A DNA stretch of 64,000 nt from a bacterium (GTDB taxonomy: Bacteria; Patescibacteriota; Minisyncoccia; Moranbacterales; GWC2-37-73): positions 27,348 to 91,347 of the forward strand of contig JBAXDL010000003.1 in NCBI GenBank assembly GCA_037140955.1, read 5' to 3'. Positions 5,089 to 54,390 of the stretch are shown one piece after another. Each line of letters opens with the position of its first letter. Position 1 is the stretch's first letter. A program made the position numbers and the translations under genes. The notes below the pieces were generated by a model. The model saw only the letters and a list, made by a program, of their open reading frames with translations. It was not told where the DNA came from and did no database searches.

Positions 5089-5213
5089 ATGAATTTAAAT
5101 TTCTAATTCTGAATTTTTAATTTTGAATAAAATCTTAATGGCACAATGTTTCAAAATTTAAAACATTGAAAATTCATTCAAAATTCAAAATTGGAAATTA
5201 AAAATTAATAGCC

Positions 5214-9037: not shown

Positions 9038-10186
9038 CTATTCCCCCTTCAAGATAACAGAAATTTCCCTCGCACATTGGTCCCAATCAAATCTTTTCAC
9101 ATTTTTAAGACCTTTTTTGATAAGGTCTTTTTTCTTTTCTTTGTTAGAAATTATTTCAAAAATATTCTCAGCAATTTCATTTGGATTACTTGGATCAACC
9201 AAAGCAGCTGAACAGGTATCAAATTGCATCTTTGCTTTTTCAAGACCGGATTCCGGTTCAAGCCCGGAATGACAAGATGTGATCTCGGAAATCGAAGAAT
9301 TGTTTGAAGCAACAACGCAGCATCCAACACTTTGCGCTTCCAAAATTGGAATTCCAAAGCCTTCATATTGTGTTGGAAAAACAAAAACATCTGCATTTTT
9401 CAAAAGTTCCCATTTTTCATCATCACCCACGAATCCAAATTCTTGAATTTCCTCATTCCATTTGGAATTTGATATTTGGAATTTGATATTTACATAATTA
9501 TGTCCTGGTTTTCCAGCAAGTATAAGATGATGCGGAATATTATATTTTTCCTTCAATATGTCAAAAGCTTTGATGATATTTGCAATATTTTTCCTTTCCT
9601 CAATTCTACCTAAAAATAAAAGAAATTTCTGATTTCTAATTTTGGATTTTATTTGATATTTGTCATTTGGATTTTGGATTTTATTGCCGTATCCCTCATA
9701 AATAACCTTTATTTTTTCATTTGCAATTCCATATAGTTCAATCAAATCCTTCTTGGTGTTTTCAGAAACTGAAATTATCACATTTGCCCAAATGCAGGAT
9801 TTTTTGATAGTAAGACGCATATAAAAGCGCTCAAACCAAGAATATGCTCGTGGAAGAAATTCATATTCCAGGCCATGCACTGTCACGATAGTATTTCTTG
9901 GATGAATCATTGGCACAGTATGTGCAGGAACAAACAATTTCTCCACTGGATGCAAAAACATTTCCAATGACAATCCAAATTGTGTCCAAAATATTGGAAA
10001 TCTTATTTCCGTGATTTTCCAATTTTCTGGCAACTTGAAATCTATTTTTTGATTTTTACGAATATACAAAATTACTTGCTCATTCTGCAAGTAATTTGTA
10101 AGATTTTCTATAACCTGATATGAATATTCTTCAATACCAGTTCTTTGTTTCAAAAATGCCCGAGAAGCATCGATGCCTATTTTCAT
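9038..10186 (-). CDS. Glycosyltransferase family 4 (group 1). The C-terminal region contains a GC-rich palindromic-repeat fragment in frame.
   Basis: QYEGFGIPILEAQSVGCCVVAS (E-x7-E region). The peptide SCHSGLEPESG is encoded by the GC-rich 9258..9282 segment shared with the element inside elp3. Confidence 0.7.
   Translation of the reverse strand: MKIGIDASRAFLKQRTGIEEYSYQVIENLTNYLQNEQVILYIRKNQKIDFKLPENWKITEIRFPIFWTQFGLSLEMFLHPVEKLFVPAHTVPMIHPRNTIVTVHGLEYEFLPRAYSWFERFYMRLTIKKSCIWANVIISVSENTKKDLIELYGIANEKIKVIYEGYGNKIQNPNDKYQIKSKIRNQKFLLFLGRIEERKNIANIIKAFDILKEKYNIPHHLILAGKPGHNYVNIKFQISNSKWNEEIQEFGFVGDDEKWELLKNADVFVFPTQYEGFGIPILEAQSVGCCVVASNNSSISEITSCHSGLEPESGLEKAKMQFDTCSAALVDPSNPNEIAENIFEIISNKEKKKDLIKKGLKNVKRFDWDQCAREISVILKGE
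9258..9282 (-). repeat. Partial copy of the GC-rich palindromic element, in frame within the GT4 coding sequence (CHSG-peptide family). It is 20 bp identical to 46908-46927.
   Basis: The minus-strand sequence tgtcattccgggcttgaacc matches tgtcattccgggcttgaccc at 46908 apart from a one-base insertion (19 of 20 identical). It lies in a local GC spike. Confidence 0.55.
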
Positions 10187-10232
10187 TGCTTGTTAGATAT
10201 TAGCGTTTAGCTATTACAAAAAATAACCACTA

Positions 10233-10343
10233 TGCGAGATTATTTTTATTATTTGGCCAATAACCGGCGACAGTGGATTCTTGAGCTTTTGGATATTAAG
10301 CATTTCATCCAAAAGCGTGCCAAAAAATGAAAATAATCTCACA
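10233..10343 (+). repeat. MITE-like intergenic element, copy A (TIR tgcgagattatttt / aaaataatctcaca, central hairpin).
   Basis: 111 bp between mreB (3' end) and GT4 (5' end). Hairpin gcttttggat-N12-atccaaaagc at 10285-10316. Shares the ggccaa..gcgacag..tgagctttt..aaaagcgtgccaaaaa core with five other copies. Confidence 0.8.
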
Positions 10344-10358
10344 TAACTCAATAAAAGC

Positions 10359-11366
10359 CTACTTCGCCAGCGTAATTGTCCTTTTGTATATTTCAAGATT
10401 ATCAAGAGCAATTCCTATCCCCTTGATCACGCAAAACAAAGGATCATCAGCCACATAGCAAGGCACGCCAATTGTTTTTGTGATGAGTTGATCAAGATTG
10501 CGCAACAAAGCTCCTCCACCAGAAAGAATCATGCCTTTGTCCATGATGTCAGCAGCCAATTCGGGTGGCGTTTCTTGAAAAACTTTTTTAATAGCATTAA
10601 TAACCTCTCGAAGTTCATCTTGCAATGCTTCCGTCACTTCATTAGAAGAGATTCTAATTGTTTTTGGAAGTCCACCCATAAGGTCGCGACCACGCACATC
10701 CATATGATCTTCTTTAACTTGAGCAATAGCACTGCCAATTTCTTTTTTGATGTCCTCGGCCGTTCTATCCCCCACTGCCAAGCCATATTTTCTTTTAATA
10801 TAATCAGAAATTGCTTGATCAAATTTGTTTCCACCAACACGTGCACTGTGAGCAGCCACAATGCCTCCCAAGGAAATCACAGCAATCTCCGATGTTCCGC
10901 CACCGATATTAATAATCATATTACCTTGAGCATTATGAATAGGAATTCCAGCACCAATAGCAGCCAACAATGGCTCTTTCACAACATAGGCTGATTTTGC
11001 ACCAGCTTTCACTGCTGCATCAATCACGGCGCGACGTTCAGTCGATGTCACTCCAGCAGGAATGGAAATCATGATTTCAGGCTTAAAAACCCTGACCTTG
11101 CCAGTCACCTTGTTGATAAAATATTTTAGCATTGCTTCTGTCACACGATAATCAGCAATAACACCATCCTTCATGGGACGAGATGCCACAATATTGTCAG
11201 GTGTGCGACCAAGCATTTCCCTTGCTTGATTGCCAACCGCCAAAACAATATTGTCCAATGGCGAAACAGCCACCACAGATGGCTCATTAACAACAATTCC
11301 TTTGCCAGGAATAAAAACCAAAGTGTTTGCAGTTCCAAGATCAATTCCTATCCTCCTGATAAACAT
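10359..11366 (-). CDS. mreB: Rod shape-determining protein MreB (actin-like ATPase).
   Basis: IGIDLGTANTLVF start, phosphate-1/2 and adenosine motifs, 335 aa. Confidence 0.9.
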   Translation of the reverse strand: MFIRRIGIDLGTANTLVFIPGKGIVVNEPSVVAVSPLDNIVLAVGNQAREMLGRTPDNIVASRPMKDGVIADYRVTEAMLKYFINKVTGKVRVFKPEIMISIPAGVTSTERRAVIDAAVKAGAKSAYVVKEPLLAAIGAGIPIHNAQGNMIINIGGGTSEIAVISLGGIVAAHSARVGGNKFDQAISDYIKRKYGLAVGDRTAEDIKKEIGSAIAQVKEDHMDVRGRDLMGGLPKTIRISSNEVTEALQDELREVINAIKKVFQETPPELAADIMDKGMILSGGGALLRNLDQLITKTIGVPCYVADDPLFCVIKGIGIALDNLEIYKRTITLAK

Positions 11367-11746: not shown

Positions 11747-11766
11747 AAAAATAATATGCAAATTTC

Positions 11767-11870
11767 GTGAATCTATTTCATCTTGAGGCAACAGCGAACG
11801 AGAGTGAGGTCTTAGCTTTTGATTATTAACTCCTTAATCAAAAGCGTGCCGAAAGAGGAAATAGATGAGC
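11767..11870 (+). repeat. MITE-like element, copy B (TIR tgaatctatttc / gaaatagatgag).
   Basis: Between murA (3' end) and the mazG-like gene (5' end). Hairpin gcttttgatta-N9-taatcaaaagc followed by gtgccgaaagaggaaatag. The core is colinear with copies A, C, D, E and F. Confidence 0.7.
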
Positions 11871-11894
11871 AGAAATTTGCTCAATCAAAAAACT

Positions 11895-16295: not shown

Positions 16296-17009
16296 TTATA
16301 TCCATTTTTTTGCTTCCAAGCCAAGTCTTGCCGCTTCACGTTGAGCTTCTTGCTTTGAATTTCCTTCGCCCTCTGCCACCAATTCATCAGCAAGATAAAC
16401 GCCAACCACAAAGTGTTTGTCGTGATCAGGTCCCCATTCCTTCATCACGCGATACGATGGAGTGACTTTGCTATTTTCCTGCGCCTTCTCTTGAAAATAA
16501 CTTTTTGGATCAAGGTATAATTTTTTTTCAATAATCTCGGTCAATCTGGTTGCTACATTTTTCAAGACAAATTTTTTGGTCACCTCATATCCTTGATCAA
16601 GATAAATAGCGCCAATAATGGCTTCCAATGCGTTTGCCAGTAAGTATTGACGAGCTCTCCCTTTGTCTTTTGCTTCTCCGCGACTCATGAGCAAAAATCC
16701 TTCAACTCCAATGCTTTGCGAAACACTAGCAAGCATTTCACCATTAACAAGCGCACTTCTCCAACTAGTAAGTTCGCCTTCTGGATTTTTATAATTAGCG
16801 TACAAATATTCAGTTATAATCAATTCTAAAACAGCATCACCCAAAAATTCCAAACGCTCATTGTGATCAAGCGCATAATCTCTGTTTTCATTTAAGTAAC
16901 TTCGATGCGTCACTGCCTGTCTCAAAATTTCAATATTTCCAAATTCAACTCCAATTTTTTTAGCTAAAGATTCGATCATAGATACAAAAACCCAAAAACC
17001 AAATAACAA
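16296..17009 (-). CDS. rnc: Ribonuclease III.
   Basis: ERLEFLGDAVLE signature, C-terminal dsRBD, 237 aa. Confidence 0.9.
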   Translation of the reverse strand: MLFGFWVFVSMIESLAKKIGVEFGNIEILRQAVTHRSYLNENRDYALDHNERLEFLGDAVLELIITEYLYANYKNPEGELTSWRSALVNGEMLASVSQSIGVEGFLLMSRGEAKDKGRARQYLLANALEAIIGAIYLDQGYEVTKKFVLKNVATRLTEIIEKKLYLDPKSYFQEKAQENSKVTPSYRVMKEWGPDHDKHFVVGVYLADELVAEGEGNSKQEAQREAARLGLEAKKWI

Positions 17010-17127
17010 AAACCAAATAAAATCAAAAGTTCAAAATCTTAATTTTTAGATTTTGATATTTAGTCATTTATTTGAAATTTGACATTTGGATTTTAGATTT
17101 GAAATAACTCAATTATATTCAGAAAGC

Positions 17128-34312: not shown

Positions 34313-34496
34313 AATTTTATAATTATCGTTTTTAGTAAGAATTATTTTAATACAAAATTTCCTTAATTTATTTCATTGCTCAAATTTCCAAATCTCAATT
34401 TCCAATTTCCAACAAAATTCCAATGTATCAATTTTCAAAATTAAATTCATTTAAGAGCTTATTTGGCATTTGCAATTTGGATTTTGAAATTACCTA

Positions 34497-34835
34497 CTAT
34501 CTATTGTCTCCATTACCATTAATAACACCACGATTCATCCTACTTTGCAACTTTTCAATATTAAACTGTGCAACTTCATCCAATGACAATTTCAGCTCAC
34601 TTGAAAGCTGCGAAACATACCACAAAACATCGCCCAATTCTTTTTTGATTTCCTGCTTTGTATCCTCATCAATAACACCACCCTTGTCGCGAATAACTTT
34701 CTTTATTTTCTCAGCCACCTCTCCAGCCTCGCCAGAAAGACCCAGTGTTGGATACACAAAATTACTTCCCACTTCAGGATAAAGAGCTGTTTTTCTTGAT
34801 TCTTCTTGATATTCTTTAAAATTCATATTTTTCAT
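34497..34835 (-). CDS. mazG: MazG-family nucleoside triphosphate pyrophosphohydrolase (house-cleaning).
   Basis: LSGEAGEVAEKIKKVIRDKGG...KQEIKKELGDVLWYVSQL (EE..E..K...E.GD motif). 112 aa. Confidence 0.7.
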   Translation of the reverse strand: MKNMNFKEYQEESRKTALYPEVGSNFVYPTLGLSGEAGEVAEKIKKVIRDKGGVIDEDTKQEIKKELGDVLWYVSQLSSELKLSLDEVAQFNIEKLQSRMNRGVINGNGDNR

Positions 34836-34865
34836 GTTTTAGTATTTACGTTTTTATTTAAGCAA

Positions 34866-34972
34866 TGTGAGACAATTTTTCTTTTCGGCCAACAGAAACG
34901 AGAGTTTCTCTTGAGCTTTTAGATATTGAGTATTTTATCTAAAAGCGTGCCAAGAAGGAAAATAGTCAAGCA
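34866..34972 (+). repeat. MITE-like element, copy C (TIR tgtgagacaattttt / aaaatagtcaagca).
   Basis: Between mazG and the tmk-like gene. Hairpin gcttttagat-N12-atctaaaagc shows compensatory changes relative to other copies. Confidence 0.8.
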
Positions 34973-34990
34973 ATTGTGCAAACATCTTGC

Positions 34991-35587
34991 TTACAATATT
35001 TTCTCTATTTTTTCCACAATATCAGCTTGAACTTTTTCAATCTCCTGATTTGCATCCACCTTTTCCCAGCCGTATTGATTTGCCAAAAGTTCATGGAAAT
35101 TCTTGCAAATAACAATTCGCTCCTCATTTGTTTCATTGCGATGATCTTTTTCAATGGCAGACAAAAACCTTTTTCCATGCATCAGAATTTCCAGATCAGG
35201 CTTGAGCAAATCTTTGTTAATCTCAACCAAGTAATCCAACTCACCACCCCATGTCAATCCCCAAGATATGCCAGTTCCAGTATAATCTTCAGCCACAATC
35301 CACTCTCCATCCTCAAGCCTGTTTTTCAGTTCTTGCTCATATCTCTTGCGATTATCAGCATATTTTGCTTGCAAATCATGCGTGGAAAGCTCATTATTTT
35401 TTCGAAACTCACTATCACGCAAGTATTTATAAATAAAAGGCCCTTCAGGTTCTAGATCATAGATTGGATATTTCAATCTTGAAACATTTTTACCAAGACT
35501 TTTCAAATGCTCAACCAAAAGCTCAACTTGGGTTGTCTTCCCAATTCCATTGATCCCATATATCGCAATGAATTTTCCTTTTTCCAT
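34991..35587 (-). CDS. tmk: Thymidylate kinase-like / deoxynucleoside kinase family P-loop kinase.
   Basis: IAIYGINGIGKTTQ P-loop of dTMP-kinase type. 198 aa. Sits in a thymidylate-synthesis cluster. Confidence 0.5.
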   Translation of the reverse strand: MEKGKFIAIYGINGIGKTTQVELLVEHLKSLGKNVSRLKYPIYDLEPEGPFIYKYLRDSEFRKNNELSTHDLQAKYADNRKRYEQELKNRLEDGEWIVAEDYTGTGISWGLTWGGELDYLVEINKDLLKPDLEILMHGKRFLSAIEKDHRNETNEERIVICKNFHELLANQYGWEKVDANQEIEKVQADIVEKIEKIL

Positions 35588-35591
35588 ATTA

Positions 35592-36092
35592 TTATCTTTC
35601 CAATTCTAAAAATGTATATTTAAATTCTGCATCCGCACTTTGTTTTTTGCTAATAACTTTGTTAAATTGCGAATATTCTGGGAAAAAAGTGTCACCATCA
35701 AAATCACCATCAATCAATGTTAAATACAACTTATCAGCCATGCCAATTGTTTGAGCATACACATTAGCACCACCACAAATAAAAATTTCGTCTTTTTCAA
35801 TTTCACGTGCCTTGTTAATTGCCTCCTCAAGATTGCTTGCCATAATAACGCCGGCAATATGTTCCTCACTGCTGCCAGAGAGAACTATTGTTGTGCGATT
35901 AGGCAAAGGTTTTCCAATTGATTGAAAAGTTTTTCTTCCCATCACCACAACATGCCCATTGGTTGTTTGCTTAAAATGCTTGAAGTCTTCAGGAATATGC
36001 CAAAGCAGCTGATTGTTTTTCCCAATCGCCCTATTTTCTGCTAGCGCACAAATAATACTAATTTTTGGATTGTTCATTTTTATTGCTAACAT
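35592..36092 (-). CDS. folA: Dihydrofolate reductase. The start is ATG 36092 or 36077; the track's 36242 start runs through repeat copy D and is rejected.
   Basis: ISIICALAENRAIGKNNQLLWHIPEDFKHFKQTT...VVMGRKTF. 162-167 aa. Confidence 0.8.
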   Translation of the reverse strand: MLAIKMNNPKISIICALAENRAIGKNNQLLWHIPEDFKHFKQTTNGHVVVMGRKTFQSIGKPLPNRTTIVLSGSSEEHIAGVIMASNLEEAINKAREIEKDEIFICGGANVYAQTIGMADKLYLTLIDGDFDGDTFFPEYSQFNKVISKKQSADAEFKYTFLELER

Positions 36093-36120
36093 TTTTATTA
36101 TGTTTTTTATAGCATAGTTT

Positions 36121-36226
36121 TGCGAGACAAATTTTATTTTTGGCACGCTTTTGAATGAATACTCACTATTCAAAAGCTCAAGAGCTACTGTCGCCAGCTG
36201 TTGGCCAAAAACAAAATTAGTCTCGC
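36121..36226 (-). repeat. MITE-like element, copy D, in inverted orientation (TIR tgcgagacaaat / attagtctcgcga).
   Basis: The reverse complement matches the core of copies A, C and E (ggccaacagctggcgacag...gagcttttgaatagtgagtattcattcaaaagcgtgccaaaaa). It lies between folA and thyA. Confidence 0.8.
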
Positions 36227-36271
36227 GACTGCATAAATTCAAGATGACATTATTTCATCCATTAAAAACAC

Positions 36272-37183
36272 TTAAACAGCTATAGGAGCCTTAATCGGTG
36301 GATATGGATCATAATTTTCCAAAACAAAATCTTCAAACTTGAAATCAAAAATATCCTTCACTTCTGGATTTATCTTTATACTTGGAAGCTGGCGTGGTTG
36401 CCTTGAAAGCTGCTCAGCAACTTGATCAAAATGAAAATTATAAATATGAGCATCGCCAAGCGTGTGCACAAATTCTCCAGCTTCCAATCCGCAAGCCTGT
36501 GCAATCATCATTGTCAAAAGTGCATATGATGCAATATTAAACGGCACACCCAAAAGCGTATCGGCACTTCTTTGATACAACTGACAAGAAAGTTTTCCAT
36601 TGGCCACATTGAATTGAAAAAGAAGGTGACATGGTGGCAACGCCATTTTGTCGATGTCTCCCACGTTCCAAGCTGACAAGATAATCCTTCTTGAATCAGG
36701 ATTTTTTTTGATGGTTTCAATAATTTGAGCAATTTGATCTATCTCTTTGCCATCAGTTGTTTTCCAATGTCTCCACTGCACGCCATAGACCGGCCCAAGC
36801 TCTCCCCACGTGGCAGCAAATTCATCATCTGTTTTTATCCTTTTAATATAATTTTTCATCTCATCCTTCCATTCTTGAGAATAGGTTGGGAATTTTTCAG
36901 CCAAATTATTCTTATCAAGATAAGATTGAAAAGGCCAATCATTCCAAATATGCACATCATTTTGCACTAAATATTTGATATTTGAATCCCCTTTCAAAAA
37001 CCAAATAAGCTCATGAATAATACCTTTTAGAAAGACTTTTTTGGTTGTGAGAAGAGGAAAACCCTTTTGCAAATCAAAGCGCATTTGATAACCAAAAACA
37101 CTCTTGGTGCCAACCCCAGTTCTGTCGCTTTTTTGCACTCCATTGTCCATGATGTGCTGCAAAAGATCCAAATATTGTTTCAT
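36272..37183 (-). CDS. thyA: Thymidylate synthase (ThyA type).
   Basis: [31 protein letters not shown], catalytic Cys in LPPCH. 303 aa. Confidence 0.95.
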
Positions 37184-37206
37184 AGAATTTAATAACTCTA
37201 AAAATA

Positions 37207-37761
37207 TTATTTAATATTTTGACTTATAATATCATTAATTTGTTCATACAAATCAGGAAATGTCCCATCATTATTAATGACATAATCTGAATAATTTTTC
37301 AGATCCTTTATTTGAATTTCAGTTTCAAGCTCATGATCTTTCTTGAAGTCTTCAAAGGTCTTGGCAGTATCATCAGTATTTTCAGCTCGCTTAATGATGC
37401 GCTCATAGCGATTTTGCATATCAGCCTCCATGTAGATAAGTTTAAAGTGAGGCAATTCCTTAAGATAAGAAATGTCAGCCATACGACGCACACCATCAAC
37501 TACCACCAAATCATGTTGATCATTTTCAGCATCATGATACATAGCCTTAGCTAAAATATCTTCTCCAAAATTTTTACGCAAAACAGTTGAAATTGTTGAA
37601 ATATTTTCTCTAGATTGTTCAACATAAATTCGATCCAAAACATCCCGCAAAATAGTGGAAAAGCGATGAGCGTTTCCCTTGTGATGTTCGATAACATGCT
37701 TAGCAATTGTTCCCTTGCCAGAACCCATTTCACCCGTAATCCCCAAAATTAACTTTGCCAT
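37207..37761 (-). CDS. Deoxynucleoside monophosphate kinase, phage T4 gp1-like (P-loop NMP kinase).
   Basis: P-loop [13 protein letters not shown]. The C-terminal [22 protein letters not shown] resembles the T4 dNMP kinase C-terminus (..VITNDGSLEEL..). 184 aa. Confidence 0.45.
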
Positions 37762-37769
37762 ATTTTTTA

Positions 37770-38255
37770 TTATTTCTTTTCAAATATTAAATTATTTTTT
37801 GTCACATATTGCCTGTAAGTCACTCCAGCCATGTCTAGCATTCTTCTTGAAGCCACACTCATGTCATCATCATGATATTTGTCACTTTCGAAAATAACTT
37901 CTCTTATGCCATTTTGAATAATCGTTTTGGCACATTCATTGCAAGGAAACAATGTGCAATACAATCTCGATCCTTCAGTTTCAGCATTAGCATTATAGAT
38001 TGCATTTTCCTCGGCATGCACCACATAGGCATATTTTTTCTCACAAAAAGCTCCTTCTCTGGCCCATGGCAAATCACCATCTCCGCAACCCCTCGGAAAA
38101 CCATTATATCCAAGACCAACCACAATATTTTTCTCATTAACAATACAAGCTCCATTTTGAGTGTTGGGATCCTTTGAGCGATGAGCAATCACCTTGCTCA
38201 TTTGCATGAAAGTCTCATCCCAATCAAGATATCCCTCACGTTTTTCAGTTTGCAT
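37770..38255 (-). CDS. dCMP deaminase (cytidine/deoxycytidylate deaminase zinc-binding family).
   Basis: HAEENAI and PCNECAK zinc ligands. 161 aa. Confidence 0.8.
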   Translation of the reverse strand: MQTEKREGYLDWDETFMQMSKVIAHRSKDPNTQNGACIVNEKNIVVGLGYNGFPRGCGDGDLPWAREGAFCEKKYAYVVHAEENAIYNANAETEGSRLYCTLFPCNECAKTIIQNGIREVIFESDKYHDDDMSVASRRMLDMAGVTYRQYVTKNNLIFEKK

Positions 38256-38332
38256 ACAAGTAAATTTTAATCATTATTCCAATATCTTTATTGTATACAT
38301 TTTATCAAATACAGTAAAGATCATATTACAAC

Positions 38333-38368
38333 ATAAAAAAGACCCTGCAGACATTTGTCTGTAGGGTC
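38333..38368 (-). terminator. Rho-independent terminator: 13-bp stem gaccctgcagaca-tttg-tctgtagggtc (one G-U pair), with a T-tract on the minus strand.
   Basis: Immediately downstream of the minus-strand secreted-protein gene. The reverse-complement hairpin is followed by tttttt. Confidence 0.6.
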
Positions 38369-38390
38369 AATGATTTTTAAAAAGAAAAAA

Positions 38391-39197
38391 TTAATTTTCC
38401 TTTCGAATGAGGACGAGCACATCACCTTCCTTCACAACAATATTGTCTTCCGGTGAGATATAGTTTTCCGCCGGAATGACAATATTTTCAAATGAAACAT
38501 AAAAGTTTCTTTTGCCAATATTGTGAAATGTTGGCATCTTGATTTTTCGTTCTGGTTGCGGGTTCATGTTGAACATGATTTTCCGTTTCAAGAAGCCTCG
38601 ATTGTCAGCAACGACAGCGCCAACAATCTTTTTGTCGCCAGTGTCGGAAAAAAAGTGAGTGTTGTGAATGAAGCTAGCCAACTCACGCTCGGTTCCAGGC
38701 GACATCGCAACCAACTCATAGCTGAATTTTGTGTCATCAGTTGAAAGTCCAAAGATATTCCTTGGCACATTTCCGTTTTTTACCAAAAGACCAAGATCTT
38801 CTGGTTCAATTTCCATAAAACTTCCAATGTAGCTATTTACAAGCCATGTTGGAATTGTAGAAGAAATGTCCATCAATGGAGCGCAAGCTGCCAAATCAGC
38901 ACCAGTTACCTTGAAACGATACCAGCCAGCAGACACCAATTCTCCAGGATTTTTCTTCTCCCAGGCACCAATCACTCCAAAGAATGATTGGGATGTTTTC
39001 AATTGGCTCGTCTCTAACGTGCCACAATTCACTGAAGTCACAGTGAATTGATATGGCATATACCTCTGAAATTCGCCATTGATCAAAATTGATCTCCTGA
39101 TGGTCACCAATTCCTCACTGCCACCACCAGCCATCACTGGAAACGCCGACAGGGCAAAAATCGCTAATACAAGCCCAAAAATCATCATTTTTCTCAT
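38391..39197 (-). CDS. Hypothetical secreted protein (signal peptide). The start is at 39197 with SD AAGGAG; the track's 39257 start is rejected.
   Basis: MRKMMIFGLVLAIFALSAFPVMAGGG signal peptide. SD aaggag 7-12 nt upstream. Confidence 0.45.
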   Translation of the reverse strand: MRKMMIFGLVLAIFALSAFPVMAGGGSEELVTIRRSILINGEFQRYMPYQFTVTSVNCGTLETSQLKTSQSFFGVIGAWEKKNPGELVSAGWYRFKVTGADLAACAPLMDISSTIPTWLVNSYIGSFMEIEPEDLGLLVKNGNVPRNIFGLSTDDTKFSYELVAMSPGTERELASFIHNTHFFSDTGDKKIVGAVVADNRGFLKRKIMFNMNPQPERKIKMPTFHNIGKRNFYVSFENIVIPAENYISPEDNIVVKEGDVLVLIRKEN

Positions 39198-39361
39198 TTT
39201 CCTTCTCCTTTTGTTAAGACTACTGGAATGCCGGACATGTCCGGTTGTGTCAATCAAGACAACGTATTATTATACGCTTTTTTGTCAAAAAAGTCAAGAA
39301 AAAAACATCCCCGAAAAGATGTCTTTTTGCTTGATAGGCTTTATAGACTTTCAGCTTTTGA

Positions 39362-40039
39362 CTAAAGTGTCACTTTAATTCCAGGTCCCATAGTTGAGCA
39401 AACTGAAATTGTCATCACATATTTTCCTTTGATTCCAGAAGGACGAGCCTTTTGGATTGCATCCAAAAACATAGCATAGTTTTCTTCAAGCTTCTTTGTT
39501 TCAAAAGAAACCTTTCCAATCACTTGGTGCACATTTCCAGTGTTGTCATTTTTAAAACTAAGTTTTCCCTTTTTAAGCATTTCTACAGCTTCCTTGATCT
39601 TGTCGGTTACTGTTTCAGTCTTTGGTGAAGGCATAAGACCACGGGGTCCAAGGATTTTTGCCACAACTGCAAGTTTCGGCATCATTTCAGGACTTGCAAC
39701 AATCACATCAACTTCTTCCATTTTTCCAAGCTTGATTTTTTCAATCAAATCTTCAGCTCCAACGAAGTCAGCACCAGCCTCTTTGGCTTCAGTTGCCTTG
39801 GTTGAAGTGATAACTGCAATTCTGGCAGCCTTGCCGATTCCATGAGGAAGGACAACTGCTCCACGAACTTGTTGATCACCTTTTTTTGGATCAACAGCAA
39901 GTCTGATGTGAACCTCAACAGATTCATCAAATTTTGCAGTTTTGGTTTCTTTTGCCAAAGCCAAGGCCTCGGTCACGGCATACAATTTGTTTTTTTCAAT
40001 TTTTTCAGCCACAGTCTTATATTTTTTTCCTCTAAACAT
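39362..40039 (-). CDS. rplA: 50S ribosomal protein L1.
   Basis: MFRGKKYKTVAEKIEKNKLYAVTEALALAKE... 225 aa. Confidence 0.9.
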   Translation of the reverse strand: MFRGKKYKTVAEKIEKNKLYAVTEALALAKETKTAKFDESVEVHIRLAVDPKKGDQQVRGAVVLPHGIGKAARIAVITSTKATEAKEAGADFVGAEDLIEKIKLGKMEEVDVIVASPEMMPKLAVVAKILGPRGLMPSPKTETVTDKIKEAVEMLKKGKLSFKNDNTGNVHQVIGKVSFETKKLEENYAMFLDAIQKARPSGIKGKYVMTISVCSTMGPGIKVTL

Positions 40040-40117
40040 AGTTTTGTGTGGTCAACGAATCACGTAATATATTACTCAATTCTCCCACTATTATAATTTT
40101 ATAAACCACAGAAGCAA

Positions 40118-40224
40118 TGTGAAACTATTTTTCTTTTTTGGCCAATAGAAGCGACAGCTTCTCCTGAGCTTTTGAATAATGAGTATTTCATTCAAAAGCG
40201 TGCCAAAAAGGAAAATAGTGGAAC
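40118..40224 (+). repeat. MITE-like element, copy E (TIR tgtgaaactattttt / aaaatagtggaaca). Serves as the reference copy.
   Basis: Inserted in the rplK-rplA intergenic spacer. Core ttttggccaatagaagcgacagcttctcctgagcttttgaataatgagtatttcattcaaaagcgtgccaaaaaggaaaatagtggaacaattgc. Confidence 0.85.
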
Positions 40225-40249
40225 AATTGCAATCATCTTAAAGAATGTT

Positions 40250-40678
40250 CTAGTTTTCAATCTTGATTCCCATGCTTCTTGCTGTTCCAGCCACAATATT
40301 CATTGCTCCCTGCACATCATTAGCATTCAAATCAACCATCTTTGTCTTTGCAATTTCTTCCAATTGAGCCTTGGTCACAACCTTGCCAACCTTGTCTTTG
40401 AGTGGATTTGCAGCACCTTTTTCTGCGCCGGCAGCCTTTTTCAAAAGTTCAGCAGCTGGAGCTGTCTTCATGATGAAATCGAATGAACGATCCTCGTATA
40501 CTGTGATTTCAACTGGCACAACTTCTCCCATCTTGTCGCGAGTTTGATCATTGAAACGAACACAGAATTCTTGAATAGCAACACCATGTTGACCCAAAAC
40601 TGGTCCCACTGGAGGAGCTGGATTAGCCTTTCCACCAACTATTTGCAACTTAATGACCACTTTAATCTTCTTTGCCAT
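40250..40678 (-). CDS. rplK: 50S ribosomal protein L11.
   Basis: [33 protein letters not shown]. 142 aa. Confidence 0.9.
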
Positions 40679-40702
40679 ATATTTTTTCCTTAAGGTTATT
40701 TA

Positions 40703-41248
40703 TTATATCTTAGTAATCTGCAAGAAATCAAGCTCTACAGGGGTTTCGCGTCCAAAGATTGTCACCAAAACTTTCACCTTTCCCTTCTCTTCGTCAAATT
40801 CTTGAACCTTTCCATCAAAGTCTTTAAATGGTCCTTCGTTGATTTTCACCGCATCGCCATTTTTAAGGTCAATCTTGTATTTCGGTTCAGACACTCCCAT
40901 GCGCTTTTTCAACATTTCAATTTCTTTTGGATCAACAGGGGTTGGAGTTGTACCAAGACCAATAAATCCGGTCACATTTGGCGTGTTTCGCACCACATAC
41001 CATGAAGCATCAGTCACAACCATATTAACAAGAACATAACCAGGATAAATGCGCTCTTCAATTACTGTGCGCTTGCCATTTTTGATCTTAATCTTGTTCT
41101 CCTTTGGAACCATTACATCAAAGATAAGGTCTTGCATGTCCATGGATTCAATACGCTGCTTCAAATTTCTGGTAACATTGTCTTCATAACCAGAATATGT
41201 ATGAATCACATACCAAGCTCGCCCATGATGTTGTGTCTGTTTTGCCAT
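40703..41248 (-). CDS. nusG: Transcription termination/antitermination factor NusG.
   Basis: AWYVIHTYSGYEDNV NGN domain, C-terminal KOW. 181 aa. Confidence 0.9.
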   Translation of the reverse strand: MAKQTQHHGRAWYVIHTYSGYEDNVTRNLKQRIESMDMQDLIFDVMVPKENKIKIKNGKRTVIEERIYPGYVLVNMVVTDASWYVVRNTPNVTGFIGLGTTPTPVDPKEIEMLKKRMGVSEPKYKIDLKNGDAVKINEGPFKDFDGKVQEFDEEKGKVKVLVTIFGRETPVELDFLQITKI

Positions 41249-41653: not shown

Positions 41654-41663
41654 ATTAAATAGG

Positions 41664-41737
41664 TGGGCTTATCAAGATTCGAACTTGAGACCTCGTCATT
41701 ATCAGTGACGCGCTCTAACCAGCTGAGCTATAAGCCC
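41664..41737 (-). tRNA. tRNA-Ile (anticodon GAT).
   Basis: The reverse complement gggcttatagctcagctggttagagcgcgtcactgataatgacgaggtctcaagttcgaatcttgataagccca folds as a canonical cloverleaf. Anticodon loop ctGATaa. 74 nt, CCA not encoded. Confidence 0.9.
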
Positions 41738-41784
41738 ATAAAATTTGCAAAAACTGCGTGATAAGCGCAGTAAATTCTATGTTG

Positions 41785-41857
41785 TGGACCGGACAGGACT
41801 TGAACCCGCTACCTCCTCAGTGCAAATGAGGCGCTCTACCAGGTGAGCTACCGGCCC
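41785..41857 (-). tRNA. tRNA-Ala (anticodon TGC) with a G3:U70 identity pair.
   Basis: The reverse complement gggccggtagctcacctggtagagcgcctcatttgcactgaggaggtagcgggttcaagtcctgtccggtcca. Anticodon loop ttTGCac. Acceptor gggccgg/ccggtcc with G3-U70. Confidence 0.9.
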
Positions 41858-45572: not shown

Positions 45573-47258
45573 ATGGAAAAATACTATGACAATTATATCA
45601 AATCAGCCATCAAACAGCTTCCCGACTTTCTGGATGATTTTTCAAAACTCAAAAAAAAGCTGTCCAAGCAATACAGTATTCCACTTCCAACTAACGCAAA
45701 CTTGCGTGACAGATACAATCAACTTGTAGAAAAAAGAATCATCAAAAAGAATGAAGCTTTTGAAGACATTCTTTGCACGCGTGGAATTCGCACGCAATCA
45801 GGAGTCGCAGTGGTGGCCGTCCTCACCAAGCCCTATCCATGTCCTGGAAAATGCATCTATTGCCCAACAGAAAAAGACATGCCCAAGAGTTATCTCTCAA
45901 ATGAACCGGCAGTGATGCGCGCTATTGACTCTCAATTTGACCCCTATCGTCAAATGCAAAATCGCTTGCGCTCACTGGAGCTAAATGGGCACCGAACAGA
46001 CAAGATTGAGCTTATTGTGATGGGTGGAACTTTTTCATTCTTACCCAAAGCATATCAAAAAAAATTCATAATCAGATGCTTTGCTGGGGCCAATGAATTT
46101 AAAAACAAAAGACAAAATTCAAAAGACAAAATTCAAAAGAGCCCACAAGAGCAATTGCAATTTGAGCAAAAAAGAAATGAAACCGCAAAGCAAAGAATCA
46201 TCGGGCTCACACTTGAAACAAGACCGGACTATATTAACGAAAAAGAAATTTTAAACTTCAGAGAACTTGGCTGCACGCGAGTTGAACTTGGGGTGCAGAG
46301 TATTTATGATGATGTGCTCGAATTCAACAAGCGTGGCCATCTTGTGAGCGAAACAATCAGAGCCACTAAGCTGCTCAAGGATGCAGGCTTTAAGATAAAC
46401 TATCATATGATGCCAGGTCTTCCAGGCTCGAGCATTGTTCGTGATTTTGAAATGTTCAAGTCTCTTTTTGATGGACCAAATTTTCAACCAGACATGCTCA
46501 AGATATATCCAACAGTTGTGCTCAAAGATAGTGAGTTGTATGATATTTGGAAAAAGAAAAAATACATACCGCTTTCAAATGAAGCTTTTGAAAAATTGGT
46601 AGTAAGGATAAAGAATGAAGCTATTGTGCCATATGTTCGCATTGCAAGACTCATTCGCGATGTGCCGACACCATCAATCATGGCTGGACCAATGGTTTCA
46701 AACTTGAGACAAATCATCATTCCGAAGTCAAATTGTCCCTGCATTCGTTGTCGCGAAGTTGGTGCAACCTACAAAATAAAAGAAAAAATTGTTCTGGATA
46801 GAATTGACTACAAAGCTTCAGATGGTCAAGAAATTTTCTTGCAATATGTTTCGCCTGACAAAAAAAAATTATTCGCCCTTTTGCGCCTTCGAATTCCAAA
46901 CTCCTCGTGTCATTCCGGGCTTGACCCAAAATCCAGCAAGTCTCACCAAAAAACAAACGACCTGGATTCACGCCTCCGCGGAAATGACAAGCTTTATGAT
47001 CTTTTGCCAATCCTGCAAAGTGCCGCCCTTATCAGAGAGGTTCATACCTATGGAAAATTAACCAAGATAGACACGCAAGACAAAACATCTCCGCAACATA
47101 TTGGACTTGGAAAAAAACTTCTTCTTGAAGCTGAAAAAATTGCCAAAGAAGAATTTGGTATGTCAAAAATAACAGTAATTTCTGGTGTTGGTGTGCGTGG
47201 ATATTATAGAAAAAATGGATACAGGCTTAAAAATACCTATCTAACAAAAAAGATATAA
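45573..47258 (+). CDS. elp3: Elp3-family radical SAM / GNAT protein (tRNA U34 carboxymethyluridine synthase homolog). Carries an in-frame palindromic-element insertion.
   Basis: VAVVAVLTKPYPCPGKCIYCP radical-SAM cluster region characteristic of Elp3, and a C-terminal GNAT (HIGLGKKLLLEAEKIAK). 561 aa. Confidence 0.75.
   Translation: MEKYYDNYIKSAIKQLPDFLDDFSKLKKKLSKQYSIPLPTNANLRDRYNQLVEKRIIKKNEAFEDILCTRGIRTQSGVAVVAVLTKPYPCPGKCIYCPTEKDMPKSYLSNEPAVMRAIDSQFDPYRQMQNRLRSLELNGHRTDKIELIVMGGTFSFLPKAYQKKFIIRCFAGANEFKNKRQNSKDKIQKSPQEQLQFEQKRNETAKQRIIGLTLETRPDYINEKEILNFRELGCTRVELGVQSIYDDVLEFNKRGHLVSETIRATKLLKDAGFKINYHMMPGLPGSSIVRDFEMFKSLFDGPNFQPDMLKIYPTVVLKDSELYDIWKKKKYIPLSNEAFEKLVVRIKNEAIVPYVRIARLIRDVPTPSIMAGPMVSNLRQIIIPKSNCPCIRCREVGATYKIKEKIVLDRIDYKASDGQEIFLQYVSPDKKKLFALLRLRIPNSSCHSGLDPKSSKSHQKTNDLDSRLRGNDKLYDLLPILQSAALIREVHTYGKLTKIDTQDKTSPQHIGLGKKLLLEAEKIAKEEFGMSKITVISGVGVRGYYRKNGYRLKNTYLTKKI
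46908..46989 (+). repeat. GC-rich palindromic element of about 82 bp inserted in frame in elp3 (encodes SCHSGLDPKSSKSHQKTNDLDSRLRGNDK). Terminal inverted repeat gtcattccggg / cccgcggaaatgac.
   Basis: Local GC spike with inverted termini. In other frames it reads VIPGLTQNPA / HASAEMTS, typical of a widespread palindromic-repeat peptide family. A 20-bp partial copy (one-base insertion difference) lies at 9258-9282. Confidence 0.6.
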
Positions 47259-48340: not shown

Positions 48341-48910
48341 TCATACTATCATTACTAACAATTTAAATGCCAGCCAGCCATAAAAAAATCCCAGCAGTAT
48401 TCCAGCCAAAATATCACTAGGATAATGCATGCCATTGTGCAGACGAGAAAAGGCCATCAACAAAACAAAAGCAGCAGCACACAAAAATAGTGATGGGTAA
48501 AAACTGACAATCACAAAGAGCATGGCCACTGTTGTTGCCATGTGGCTCGATGGAAATGATGAATCAGAAAATTTCTTCCCAACTGATTTTATTAATTTTG
48601 GAAAAGAAACGAATGGCCGCTTTCGCTTGGGAACAAAAAACAGCAACAAGTGCTTAATCAAAAGCTCAGTTATTCCAAAATGCAAAATCGCAACCAGGAC
48701 AATTGCCATTAAAAATGATTTTATTATTTCGGGATGTCGTAATATTGCAACCACAGCAAGCGCTGACCAAAAAAAGGCCAGGAAAGGAATTGAATTCAAA
48801 AAAGACAAAAAAATATCCATCCTTTTTGAACCAAGGTCATTAAAATATTTTACAATTTTTATTTCAAATTTATCCATCAGGCAGTAGAAATTCAAATGAG
48901 CTATGCTCAA
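48341..48910 (-). CDS. PAP2-family membrane phosphatase.
   Basis: PSSH and SR-x5-H-x3-D motifs (SFPSSHMATT...SRLHNGMHYPSDILAG). 189 aa with 5-6 TM. Confidence 0.65.
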   Translation of the reverse strand: MSIAHLNFYCLMDKFEIKIVKYFNDLGSKRMDIFLSFLNSIPFLAFFWSALAVVAILRHPEIIKSFLMAIVLVAILHFGITELLIKHLLLFFVPKRKRPFVSFPKLIKSVGKKFSDSSFPSSHMATTVAMLFVIVSFYPSLFLCAAAFVLLMAFSRLHNGMHYPSDILAGILLGFFYGWLAFKLLVMIV

Positions 48911-49010
48911 GTAAAATTATAATTTACAAATAAAAGCTTGCCATGCAAAAAGCAATAAAAAATGATCTAGCATCATAAAAATCTTTGAATTTTCACTGCC
49001 TGATCCATTT

Positions 49011-51526: not shown

Positions 51527-51546
51527 TTATTAAAATATAATATTAG

Positions 51547-51730
51547 TGAGAATAATTTTTTATTTTTGGCGCAATAGCGTCGTGCTTAGCACTCTTTCAA
51601 ACCCCTCGGTTCGAATAATTCCGCCACGGGAAAACCTAGTTTTTCCCGACCCATTTCCTGACAGTTTCTATTGAGCTTTTGGATATTGTGTATTTATCCA
51701 AAAGCATGCCAAAAAGAAAGATGGTAGAAC
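51547..51730 (+). repeat. MITE-like element, copy F, carrying a nested insertion of about 78 bp (51592-51669) that contains gggaaaacctagtttttccc and ggttcgaat motifs.
   Basis: Left end gtgagaataattttttatttttggcgcaatagcgtcg. Right part tgacagtttctattgagcttttggatattgtgtatttatccaaaagcatgccaaaaagaaagatggtagaaca. Hairpin gcttttggat/atccaaaagc. Lies between yvcK and leuS. Confidence 0.7.
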
Positions 51731-51749
51731 AATTTAACTCAAGAAATAT

Positions 51750-54155: not shown

Positions 54156-54390
54156 ATAGCTACAAGATTACAAATTTATATAAACACACAATAATTTATG
54201 TGAGAATATGTTTTTATTTTTTCACTAGAAATAAGTCACTTTGGTGTTATGTCAAAAGTTGCAATTATTTCTCCGTGACAAAAATAAAAACATATTCTCA
54301 CAACTATGCCATACCAACAAATCCATAAAAAATAAAAACAACCATCTTTAATTGTTTTTATGATATCAGAATTTTTATATAAAATCAATA

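Follow-up and report, generated by a model that had tools for sequence, protein, structure and literature searches.

A structure-defined dispersed repeat in intergenic spacers of Moranbacteria

Six copies between housekeeping genes

The window, i.e. the whole stretch of 64,000 nucleotides that was analyzed, carries six copies of a non-coding element, five of them on the plus strand and one on the minus strand, with 0.00 expected from dinucleotide shuffles. All six had been located by an earlier sequence-only reading, and the pattern AGCTTTTN{15,30}AAAAGCRTGCC has exactly six matches in the window, on the plus strand at 10284, 11814, 34914, 40167 and 51674 and on the minus strand at 36142-36178. 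A covariance model, R1, built from 40 family members scores the six at 47-115 bits and everything else in the window at 31 bits or less, with coordinates that agree with those of the reading to within about 5 nt. The consensus and the TGYGAGAYTATTTT inverted termini that had been described are correct, and the element ends given were roughly right, though the paired arms often extend 10-20 nt further. With the extended arms the full element is about 130-150 bp, the overall length being given as roughly 115-150 bp, and the density in the window is about one copy per 10 kb.

That the copies lie in spacers between minus-strand housekeeping genes had also been proposed, and Pfam supports ten of the 12 flanking genes (the confirmed flanks being GT4/MreB, PRA-PH (MazG-like)/MurA, MazG/Tmk, DHFR/ThyA, L11 and CofD (YvcK-like)), with L1 supported via its tblastn relatives. 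Each window copy nearly fills its spacer, and all the flanking genes are on the minus strand. Pairwise identity among the six is 53-81%, yet all fold, with z values against shuffles of -3.4 to -7.4 for the better-folding, or folded, strand.

Copy 1 (10232-10346, plus strand; R1 94.8 bits, fold z = -6.4) is a short form between mreB (10359-11366, minus strand) and the gene for a GT4 glycosyltransferase (9038-10186, minus strand), with its folded strand antisense to both, and its inverted arms, 10231-10257 and 10319-10345, are 89% complementary. Copy 2 (11763-11876, plus strand; 75.3 bits), between murA and a PRA-PH/MazG-like gene, is the most divergent in the window, at 65-70% identity to its best relatives; its inner stem is GAGGC/GCCGA, as in the subtype B described below, its outer stem reaches GCAAATTTC/GAAATTTGC, and its fold is at -37.9 kcal/mol with the complement at -28.9 kcal/mol. 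Copy 3 (34863-34977, plus strand; 105 bits), between tmk (34991-35587, minus strand) and mazG (34497-34835, minus strand), has a GAGA tetraloop on hairpin 1 and a compensatory AGAT/ATCT change in hairpin 2. The sole window copy with its folded strand in the sense of the flanking genes is copy 4 (36116-36230, minus strand; 115 bits), between thyA (36272-37183, minus strand) and folA (35592-36086, minus strand). Copy 5 (40115-40230, plus strand; 109.6 bits, -40.1 kcal/mol, z = -5.5), between rplK and rplA, has outer stem arms at 40115-40143 and 40202-40230, hairpin 1 at 40147-40162 with the GNRA loop GACA at 40153-40156, and hairpin 2 at 40168-40199. Copy 6 (51542-51736, plus strand; 67.8 bits) is a long variant between leuS (the label of the sequence-only reading) and a CofD/YvcK-like gene. 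In place of the hairpin 1 tetraloop it has an 88-nt three-hairpin insert (51575-51662) that recurs, 89-95% identical, in three copies from two other MAGs (L040, L047 and L069) and nowhere else.

A branched fold of one strand

The conserved feature is a fold of one strand with a three-way junction, and not a sequence. Every copy has the same architecture of long outer stem, three-way junction, hairpin 1 and hairpin 2. The outer stem, of 25-35 bp with a U-rich 5′ side and an A-rich 3′ side, comprises what had been called terminal inverted repeats together with the TTTTTGGCC/GCCAAAAA segment. Hairpin 1 has 4-6 bp and, as a rule, a purine bulge and a loop of four bases closed by C-G (C-GNRA-G); the loop in at least 47 of 58 copies is GACA, GAGA, GAAA or GAUA. 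Hairpin 2, GCTTTTGRAT...ATYCAAAAGC, has 7-10 bp and is variable in sequence and loop. Some other copies have structured insertions of 20-70 nt, either in a hairpin loop or within hairpin 1.

In the 40-copy alignment standard pairs are found in 95.3% of cells and double-sided changes at 14 of the 33 pairs, values for pairing and double change that were reached by none of 500 shuffles, and sliding the partners takes pairing to about 50%. Three of the outermost four pairs have double changes, and the distal arms are wholly different between subfamilies while still being complementary (TTACGCATTTCGAAAC / GTTGAGAAAATGCGTAA; GGTCTTTTCAATCAT / ATGATTGAAAAGAC; AATAACTTTCAGATAT / TATCTGAAAGTTATT). The arms are thus inverted repeats as had been claimed, but the sequence of the supposed ‘TIR’ is unconserved and covaries between subfamilies. 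Replacement of helices goes further in the subtypes. In subtype B, hairpin 2 becomes GCAGUCA...UGACUGC and the inner stem GAGGC/GCCGA, and in subtype C, from a more distant genome, all three helices are changed; the junction strands AUAG, CUUnGA and GU, and a loop of the C-GACA/G type, are retained in both.

Rfam 15 run on the whole window reports two tRNAs only, the element being without a match at gathering or E-value thresholds; best scores on it, with the known ribozyme classes included, are 13-19 bits (E about 1), where the thresholds are 45-91. The covarying three-way junction with its GNRA loop is a well-supported new structured motif, absent from Rfam.

Strand asymmetry and position

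The folded strand is the plus strand for five of the window copies. Calculated with RNA parameters, it exceeds its complement in stability in 54 of 57 copies (mean difference -6.3 kcal/mol), and with DNA parameters in 43 of 56. The exceptions to Watson-Crick pairing are similarly asymmetric, since the G-U pairs (n = 99) are common to whole subfamilies and the A-C mismatches (n = 29) are mostly singletons, which is expected if founder copies were selected for pairing in this strand and the copies then mutated randomly. The folded strand is on the leading-strand template, the C/A-enriched side as judged by GC skew. Mutation bias as a source of the G-U excess was considered and rejected because, with the folded strand on the C/A-enriched strand, GC skew predicts the opposite.

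Where the flanking genes are co-directional, the folded strand is antisense to them in 26 cases and sense in eight (p = 0.003, a value that ignores shared ancestry). The core of the model starts, across the family, at a median of 23 nt past the upstream stop codon.

Several more familiar identities for such a sequence were tried and discarded. There is no terminator-like site or T tract at any copy in 34400-40800, and the 3′ arms are A-rich on both strands, which disposes of an intrinsic terminator. Promoter-like matches to sigma-70 at the copies number 23, against 19.3 in shuffles, and a sigma-54 promoter on the complement, TGGCACGCTTTTG, lacks, on inspection of its bases, the GC of the -12 box at the required spacing. 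A small complement-strand ORF (copy 5, 31 codons; copy 1, 19) is not conserved; most copies do not have it, as an ATG is usually missing from the loop of hairpin 2. Finally, the ends misfit the R-box consensus of an integron attC site (RYYYAAC/GTTRRRY), and the neighbors are core housekeeping genes in conserved synteny.

The family in related genomes

A scan of 185,579 species genomes yielded 73 stretches, about 50 of them from 11 Moranbacteria/Patescibacteria MAGs and the rest chance matches in unrelated bacteria. The search beyond the window that the sequence-only reading had called for gave about 65 copies in 50 loci of these 11 related MAGs, one of which is labeled Bdellovibrionales and has more than 20 loci. 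The closest relatives of the window itself are Moraniibacteriota, in which ThyA is 87-90% and L1 85% identical. All copies seen are intergenic, ten scanned genes adjoining copies in other genomes are ordinary housekeeping genes, and the presence of two or three copies within a few kb is frequent. Copies of one subfamily at different loci are on average 91% and at most 100% identical, a sign of recent spread. The claim of a new, multi-copy, dispersed and non-coding family therefore holds, with copies at non-orthologous spacers in at least 11 related MAGs.

BLAST against plasmid and phage collections gave no match to the element, and the one pattern match in a viral contig was shown not to be a family member. 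A search of the literature on repeats or RNA motifs of CPR/Moranbacteria found nothing relevant. The element is real and undescribed, a dispersed repeat of Moranbacteria that is defined by structure.

Some arrangements seen in passing may be recorded here. Subtype B and subtype A copies are back to back, in opposite orientation, just past a terminator-like hairpin at L028:7134-7393; two copies are 160 nt apart at L001:5454-5897; and there are three in the 2.8 kb of L024:1-2773. Contigs that end inside a copy are L016, L017, L024, L034, L037, L048, L052, L058, L067 and L068. With so many MAG contigs breaking within it, the repeat fragments assemblies, and copy numbers from MAGs are underestimates.

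Filled and empty orthologous spacers

The spacer occupied by copy 5 is a case in point for positional variability. An element between rplK and rplA was found in none of 80 metagenomic contigs encoding relatives of L1 (55-85% identity), the rplK-rplA spacers of relatives being short in some and containing unrelated long AT-rich hairpins in others. In 636 kb of related DNA, two covariance models detected one strong copy and one weak divergent copy (27 bits), the latter seen in two contigs that are apparent duplicates; the second of these models, which includes subtype B, gave no further members there.

In a comparison of syntenic contigs, the thyA-folA spacer that is occupied in the window is 6 nt long and empty in L159, and conversely the folA-tmk spacer holds a copy in L159 and is 4 nt long in the window. 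Among four related MAGs, an 8-nt spacer that is empty in L009 is occupied in L054, L038 and L053, with the L053 copy being of a different subfamily and inverted. The element beside thyA is also in opposite orientation in L003 and in the window. Where copies of close genomes are orthologous, the element can be better conserved than its surroundings, as with the L054/L038 pair (element 88% identical, flanks 79%). In a second pair, L065/L007, the flanks are 89% identical and the central core has just two differences, whole-element identity being only 79% because of an insertion in one arm.

The sequence-only reading had allowed that the six might turn out to be the only copies, held at fixed orthologous positions in relatives as an ancient motif would be; the result goes against an ancient motif. 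Its argument that no gene-specific cis-regulator is involved is upheld by the unrelated housekeeping neighbors and by differences of presence, absence and orientation at orthologous spacers.

Interpretation

With belief and doubt about evenly matched, the element is taken to be a non-autonomous dispersed hairpin element that is recognized as a folded single strand and whose resident copies put long hairpins in operon transcripts. The strand-specific three-way-junction fold with its GNRA loop points to recognition of a folded single strand, whether RNA or ssDNA, and not of duplex termini. New copies would arise, or have arisen, in the very short intergenic spacers of Moranbacteria (Patescibacteria/CPR), the shape of one strand being what would be inherited and selected. 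We infer a mobilizing factor that would act in trans on the folded single strand, as RAYTs are thought to act on REPINs; unlike with a DDE transposase, duplex terminal repeats would not be the recognized feature. An ssDNA or RNA intermediate, and any effect on mRNA, would be further parts of the scheme. A point against this reading is the location of the folded strand on the leading-strand template, since the opposite location would be expected under IS608-type ssDNA transposition.

Resident copies would be co-transcribed with the host operons, the mRNA mostly carrying the weaker complement of the fold. In either orientation a long double-stranded stem in the transcript would be a candidate substrate of the RNase III encoded in the window, and processing of the stem could give the cistrons on its two sides separate fates, as is described for ERIC and Correia elements. 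The location of copies within operons and the presence of an RNase III gene (16296-17009) make such co-transcription with RNase III/E processing plausible.

A different reading, unlikely though deserving of serious attention, is that of a new class of small structured RNA, either a self-cleaving ribozyme or a protein-binding RNA, whose modules are copied in a SINE-like manner or by duplication. On this view, to which the same degree of doubt attaches, RNA from the better-folding strand would be the functional molecule and the DNA copies would be secondary. GNRA loops, tolerated domain insertions and a fold retained in old, diverged copies are accounted for at least equally well by a functional RNA: the C-GNRA-G loops vary solely within GNRA, the same junction strands persist through three subtypes in which the helices are completely replaced, peripheral loops take structured insertions of 60-90 nt with the core intact, G-U pairs are tolerated on one strand only, and diverged resident copies still fold, with orthologous cores better conserved than flanks. 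Even the antisense bias would follow if the folded RNA were harmful inside mRNA. However, flanks are unrelated between copies, with no conserved promoter upstream of the folded strand or terminator downstream of it, and in 26 of the 34 co-directional contexts it is the complement that the operon transcript carries, so that RNA of the folded strand would need antisense transcription. There is also no Rfam match, known ribozyme classes included, and when the core of the hammerhead was mapped on both strands the junction misfit it in strand lengths and in sequences, as far as can be read from the letters themselves, with Rfam in agreement. We know of no bacterial retroposition machinery for such elements. 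The more specific proposition that the better-folding strand encodes a new structured RNA, self-cleaving or protein-recruiting, that spreads as a mobile RNA-defined module is likewise doubtful; if true, the module would be a counterpart, in CPR bacteria, of ribozyme- or SINE-type repeats.

Recognition as a folded single strand, the favored reading, also has to be set against that of a classical MITE, i.e. a deletion derivative of a DDE-type IS, moved by cut-and-paste or copy-paste via its TIRs and leaving target-site duplications. The sequence-only reading had spoken of a MITE/REP-like mobile element, and non-autonomous and dispersed it is, but it failed the tests for a classical MITE, namely conserved TIRs and target duplication. 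Being small, non-coding, multi-copy and present or absent at orthologous sites is what is seen with a classical MITE. The inverted termini are often 5′-TG...CA-3′ (e.g. TGTGAGAC...GTCTCACA), a second family with a different core has the same outer stem, and the filled L054 and empty L009 spacers are compatible with a short TTTAA-like duplication. Yet the arms covary and no binding sequence is kept (TTTCGAAAC/GTTGAGAAA, TCTTTTCAATCAT/ATGATTGAAAAGA, CTTTCAGATAT/ATCTGAAAG), and strand asymmetry has no role in duplex recognition, leaving a classical MITE distinctly improbable.

Target-site duplications, for which the sequence-only reading had proposed a check, were sought at about 60 copies, in exact and mismatch-tolerant form, and the flanking direct repeats match the control distribution; the signal is at background even in the young 91%-identical subfamily. 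The exception is L054:4098-4211, a young copy with a 13-bp direct repeat, AATCATTTAACCA, on both sides, which duplicates the stop-codon region of the upstream gene, stop codon included. Its control frequency is about 0.001 per copy, and no other of the about 60 copies has a convincing candidate for a target-site duplication. With relatives only 79-89% identical, insertion boundaries are not cleanly definable.

The absence of a transposase from the window, as had been claimed, is confirmed for the 40 ORFs scanned with Pfam, most of the long ones included, and a scan of ten genes beside copies in other genomes likewise found none. What the window does encode is a tyrosine recombinase, RNase III (16296-17009) and RNase HII. 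A tblastn search for Y1/HUH transposases, with proteins of IS200 and IS608 and the E. coli RAYT as queries, gave no match in about 1.2 Mb, comprising the window and ~8 kb around each copy. This is a weak result, given that span and the approximate query sequences, though they did match in the unrelated locus L072, which served as control.

A cis-acting host signal that stays at fixed sites and does not move (a terminator, an attenuator, a promoter or a processing site, for example) is a most improbable explanation and is largely refuted by empty orthologous sites, for although copies sit just past stop codons inside operons, other long hairpins are often in the same spacers of relatives (suggesting that a hairpin as such is useful there) and the end of copy 5 overlaps a single promoter-like match that faces rplA, the positions are unconserved, the orientation flips between genomes at the same spacer and the neighboring genes are functionally unrelated.

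Relation to known repeats

REPINs are REP doublets that form hairpins, show compensatory changes and are mobilized by RAYT/TnpA-REP Y1 transposases (PMC3116915). Like them, the element is an extragenic, non-coding, multi-copy unit of ~100 nt with one long hairpin predicted in ssDNA or mRNA, compensatory changes that keep the hairpin, occasional clustering, no obvious target duplication, and a presumed reliance on an enzyme acting in trans. Unlike REPINs, its arms have no small internal palindrome or conserved tetranucleotide and are not recognizable REP units, where REPINs have a free spacer it has a conserved three-way junction and GNRA hairpin at its center, approximate queries detected no RAYT-like gene near about 60 copies, and its host is a streamlined CPR genome.

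Other parallels are with repeats whose effects are at the RNA level. ERIC/Yersinia palindromic sequences and the Correia elements of Neisseria are imperfect palindromes of 100-150 bp that lie in operon spacers and are co-transcribed, the resulting long RNA hairpins being processed by RNase III/E and having effects that depend on orientation. The element is also a palindrome in operon spacers for which hairpin processing is the proposed working model. However, it has no sequence similarity to them (Rfam, and plasmid and phage BLAST), the conserved 26-bp TIRs and TA duplications of Correia are both absent from it, and the covarying branched core with a GNRA loop is its own feature and not that of ERIC or Correia. 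As with Rickettsia palindromic elements (RPEs), palindromic repeats have proliferated in a small reduced genome without an identifiable transposase, but RPEs are often in frame in coding genes, the element is intergenic and the sequences are unrelated.

IS200/IS605 elements have a subterminal hairpin at each end, in contrast to one hairpin spanning the whole length, and their active strand is on the lagging-strand template, whereas the better-folding strand here is on the leading; no TnpA was found with the approximate queries. What they have in common with the element is strand-specific imperfect hairpins, no need for TIRs and no target duplication. Such ssDNA transposition and its miniature derivatives are discussed in PMC3116915.

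On these comparisons REPINs are the closest analogues in workings, with ERIC and Correia also close. The proposed likeness to Correia and REP elements is one of workings, and membership in REPINs, ERIC/Correia or classical MITEs fails on the features that define them.

Few known genomes are as reduced and as densely packed as those of CPR/Patescibacteria. The spread and persistence of a structure-defined repeat in genomes this compact raise the question of how a hairpin element is mobilized with no visible transposase, and also that of whether long intergenic hairpins organize mRNA processing in these organisms. From a practical perspective, the repeats break MAG assemblies, and patterns of copies could serve as strain markers.

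Other repeats and motifs

At 54196-54307 there is a hairpin with perfect 23-nt arms, TGTGAGAATATGTTTTTATTTTT, that has the outer stem of the family type and an unrelated core (weak R1 score, 20 bits). Homologues of that core at L039:917-997 and L010:3586-3611 make this a second repeat family on the same outer stem.

A further repeat family of the window consists of palindromes of short repeated words, e.g. ATTTGGATTTT, at 5094-5207, 9448-9501, 9623-9682, 16987-17100 and 34449-34491. Similar but unrelated AT-rich ‘word palindromes’ occur in the rplK-rplA and thyA-folA spacers of relatives (e.g. L074-L076, L080, L155 and L157). The one at 16988-17100, with nusB on one side and the beginning of the RNase III gene (16296-17009) on the other, may act in the rnc leader as a hairpin for self-regulation.

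Immediately before the start codon of rplA, at 40046-40088 on the minus strand, is a GTGGGAG-hairpin-GACCAC arrangement. The GTGGGAG/GACCAC motif is kept in all eight relatives inspected (L074-L083), the hairpin sequence being variable, and it is not detected by Rfam; it is probably an L1 autoregulatory binding site.

Between the PAP2 and Nramp genes, at 48876-49004, is a 21-nt inverted repeat, ATCAGGCAGTAGAAATTCAAA, that is 90% complementary with its arms 87 nt apart, and for which no relatives were present in the loci fetched. Genes for tRNA-Ile(GAT) and tRNA-Ala(TGC), a pair usually in rRNA spacers, are adjacent at 41662-41857, with no rRNA gene in the window. Lastly, a GC-rich 30-nt inverted pair, GGATTCCGGTTCAAGCCCGGAATGACAAGA, is at 9248-9277 and 46905-46934, its members being 87% complementary and 37 kb apart.
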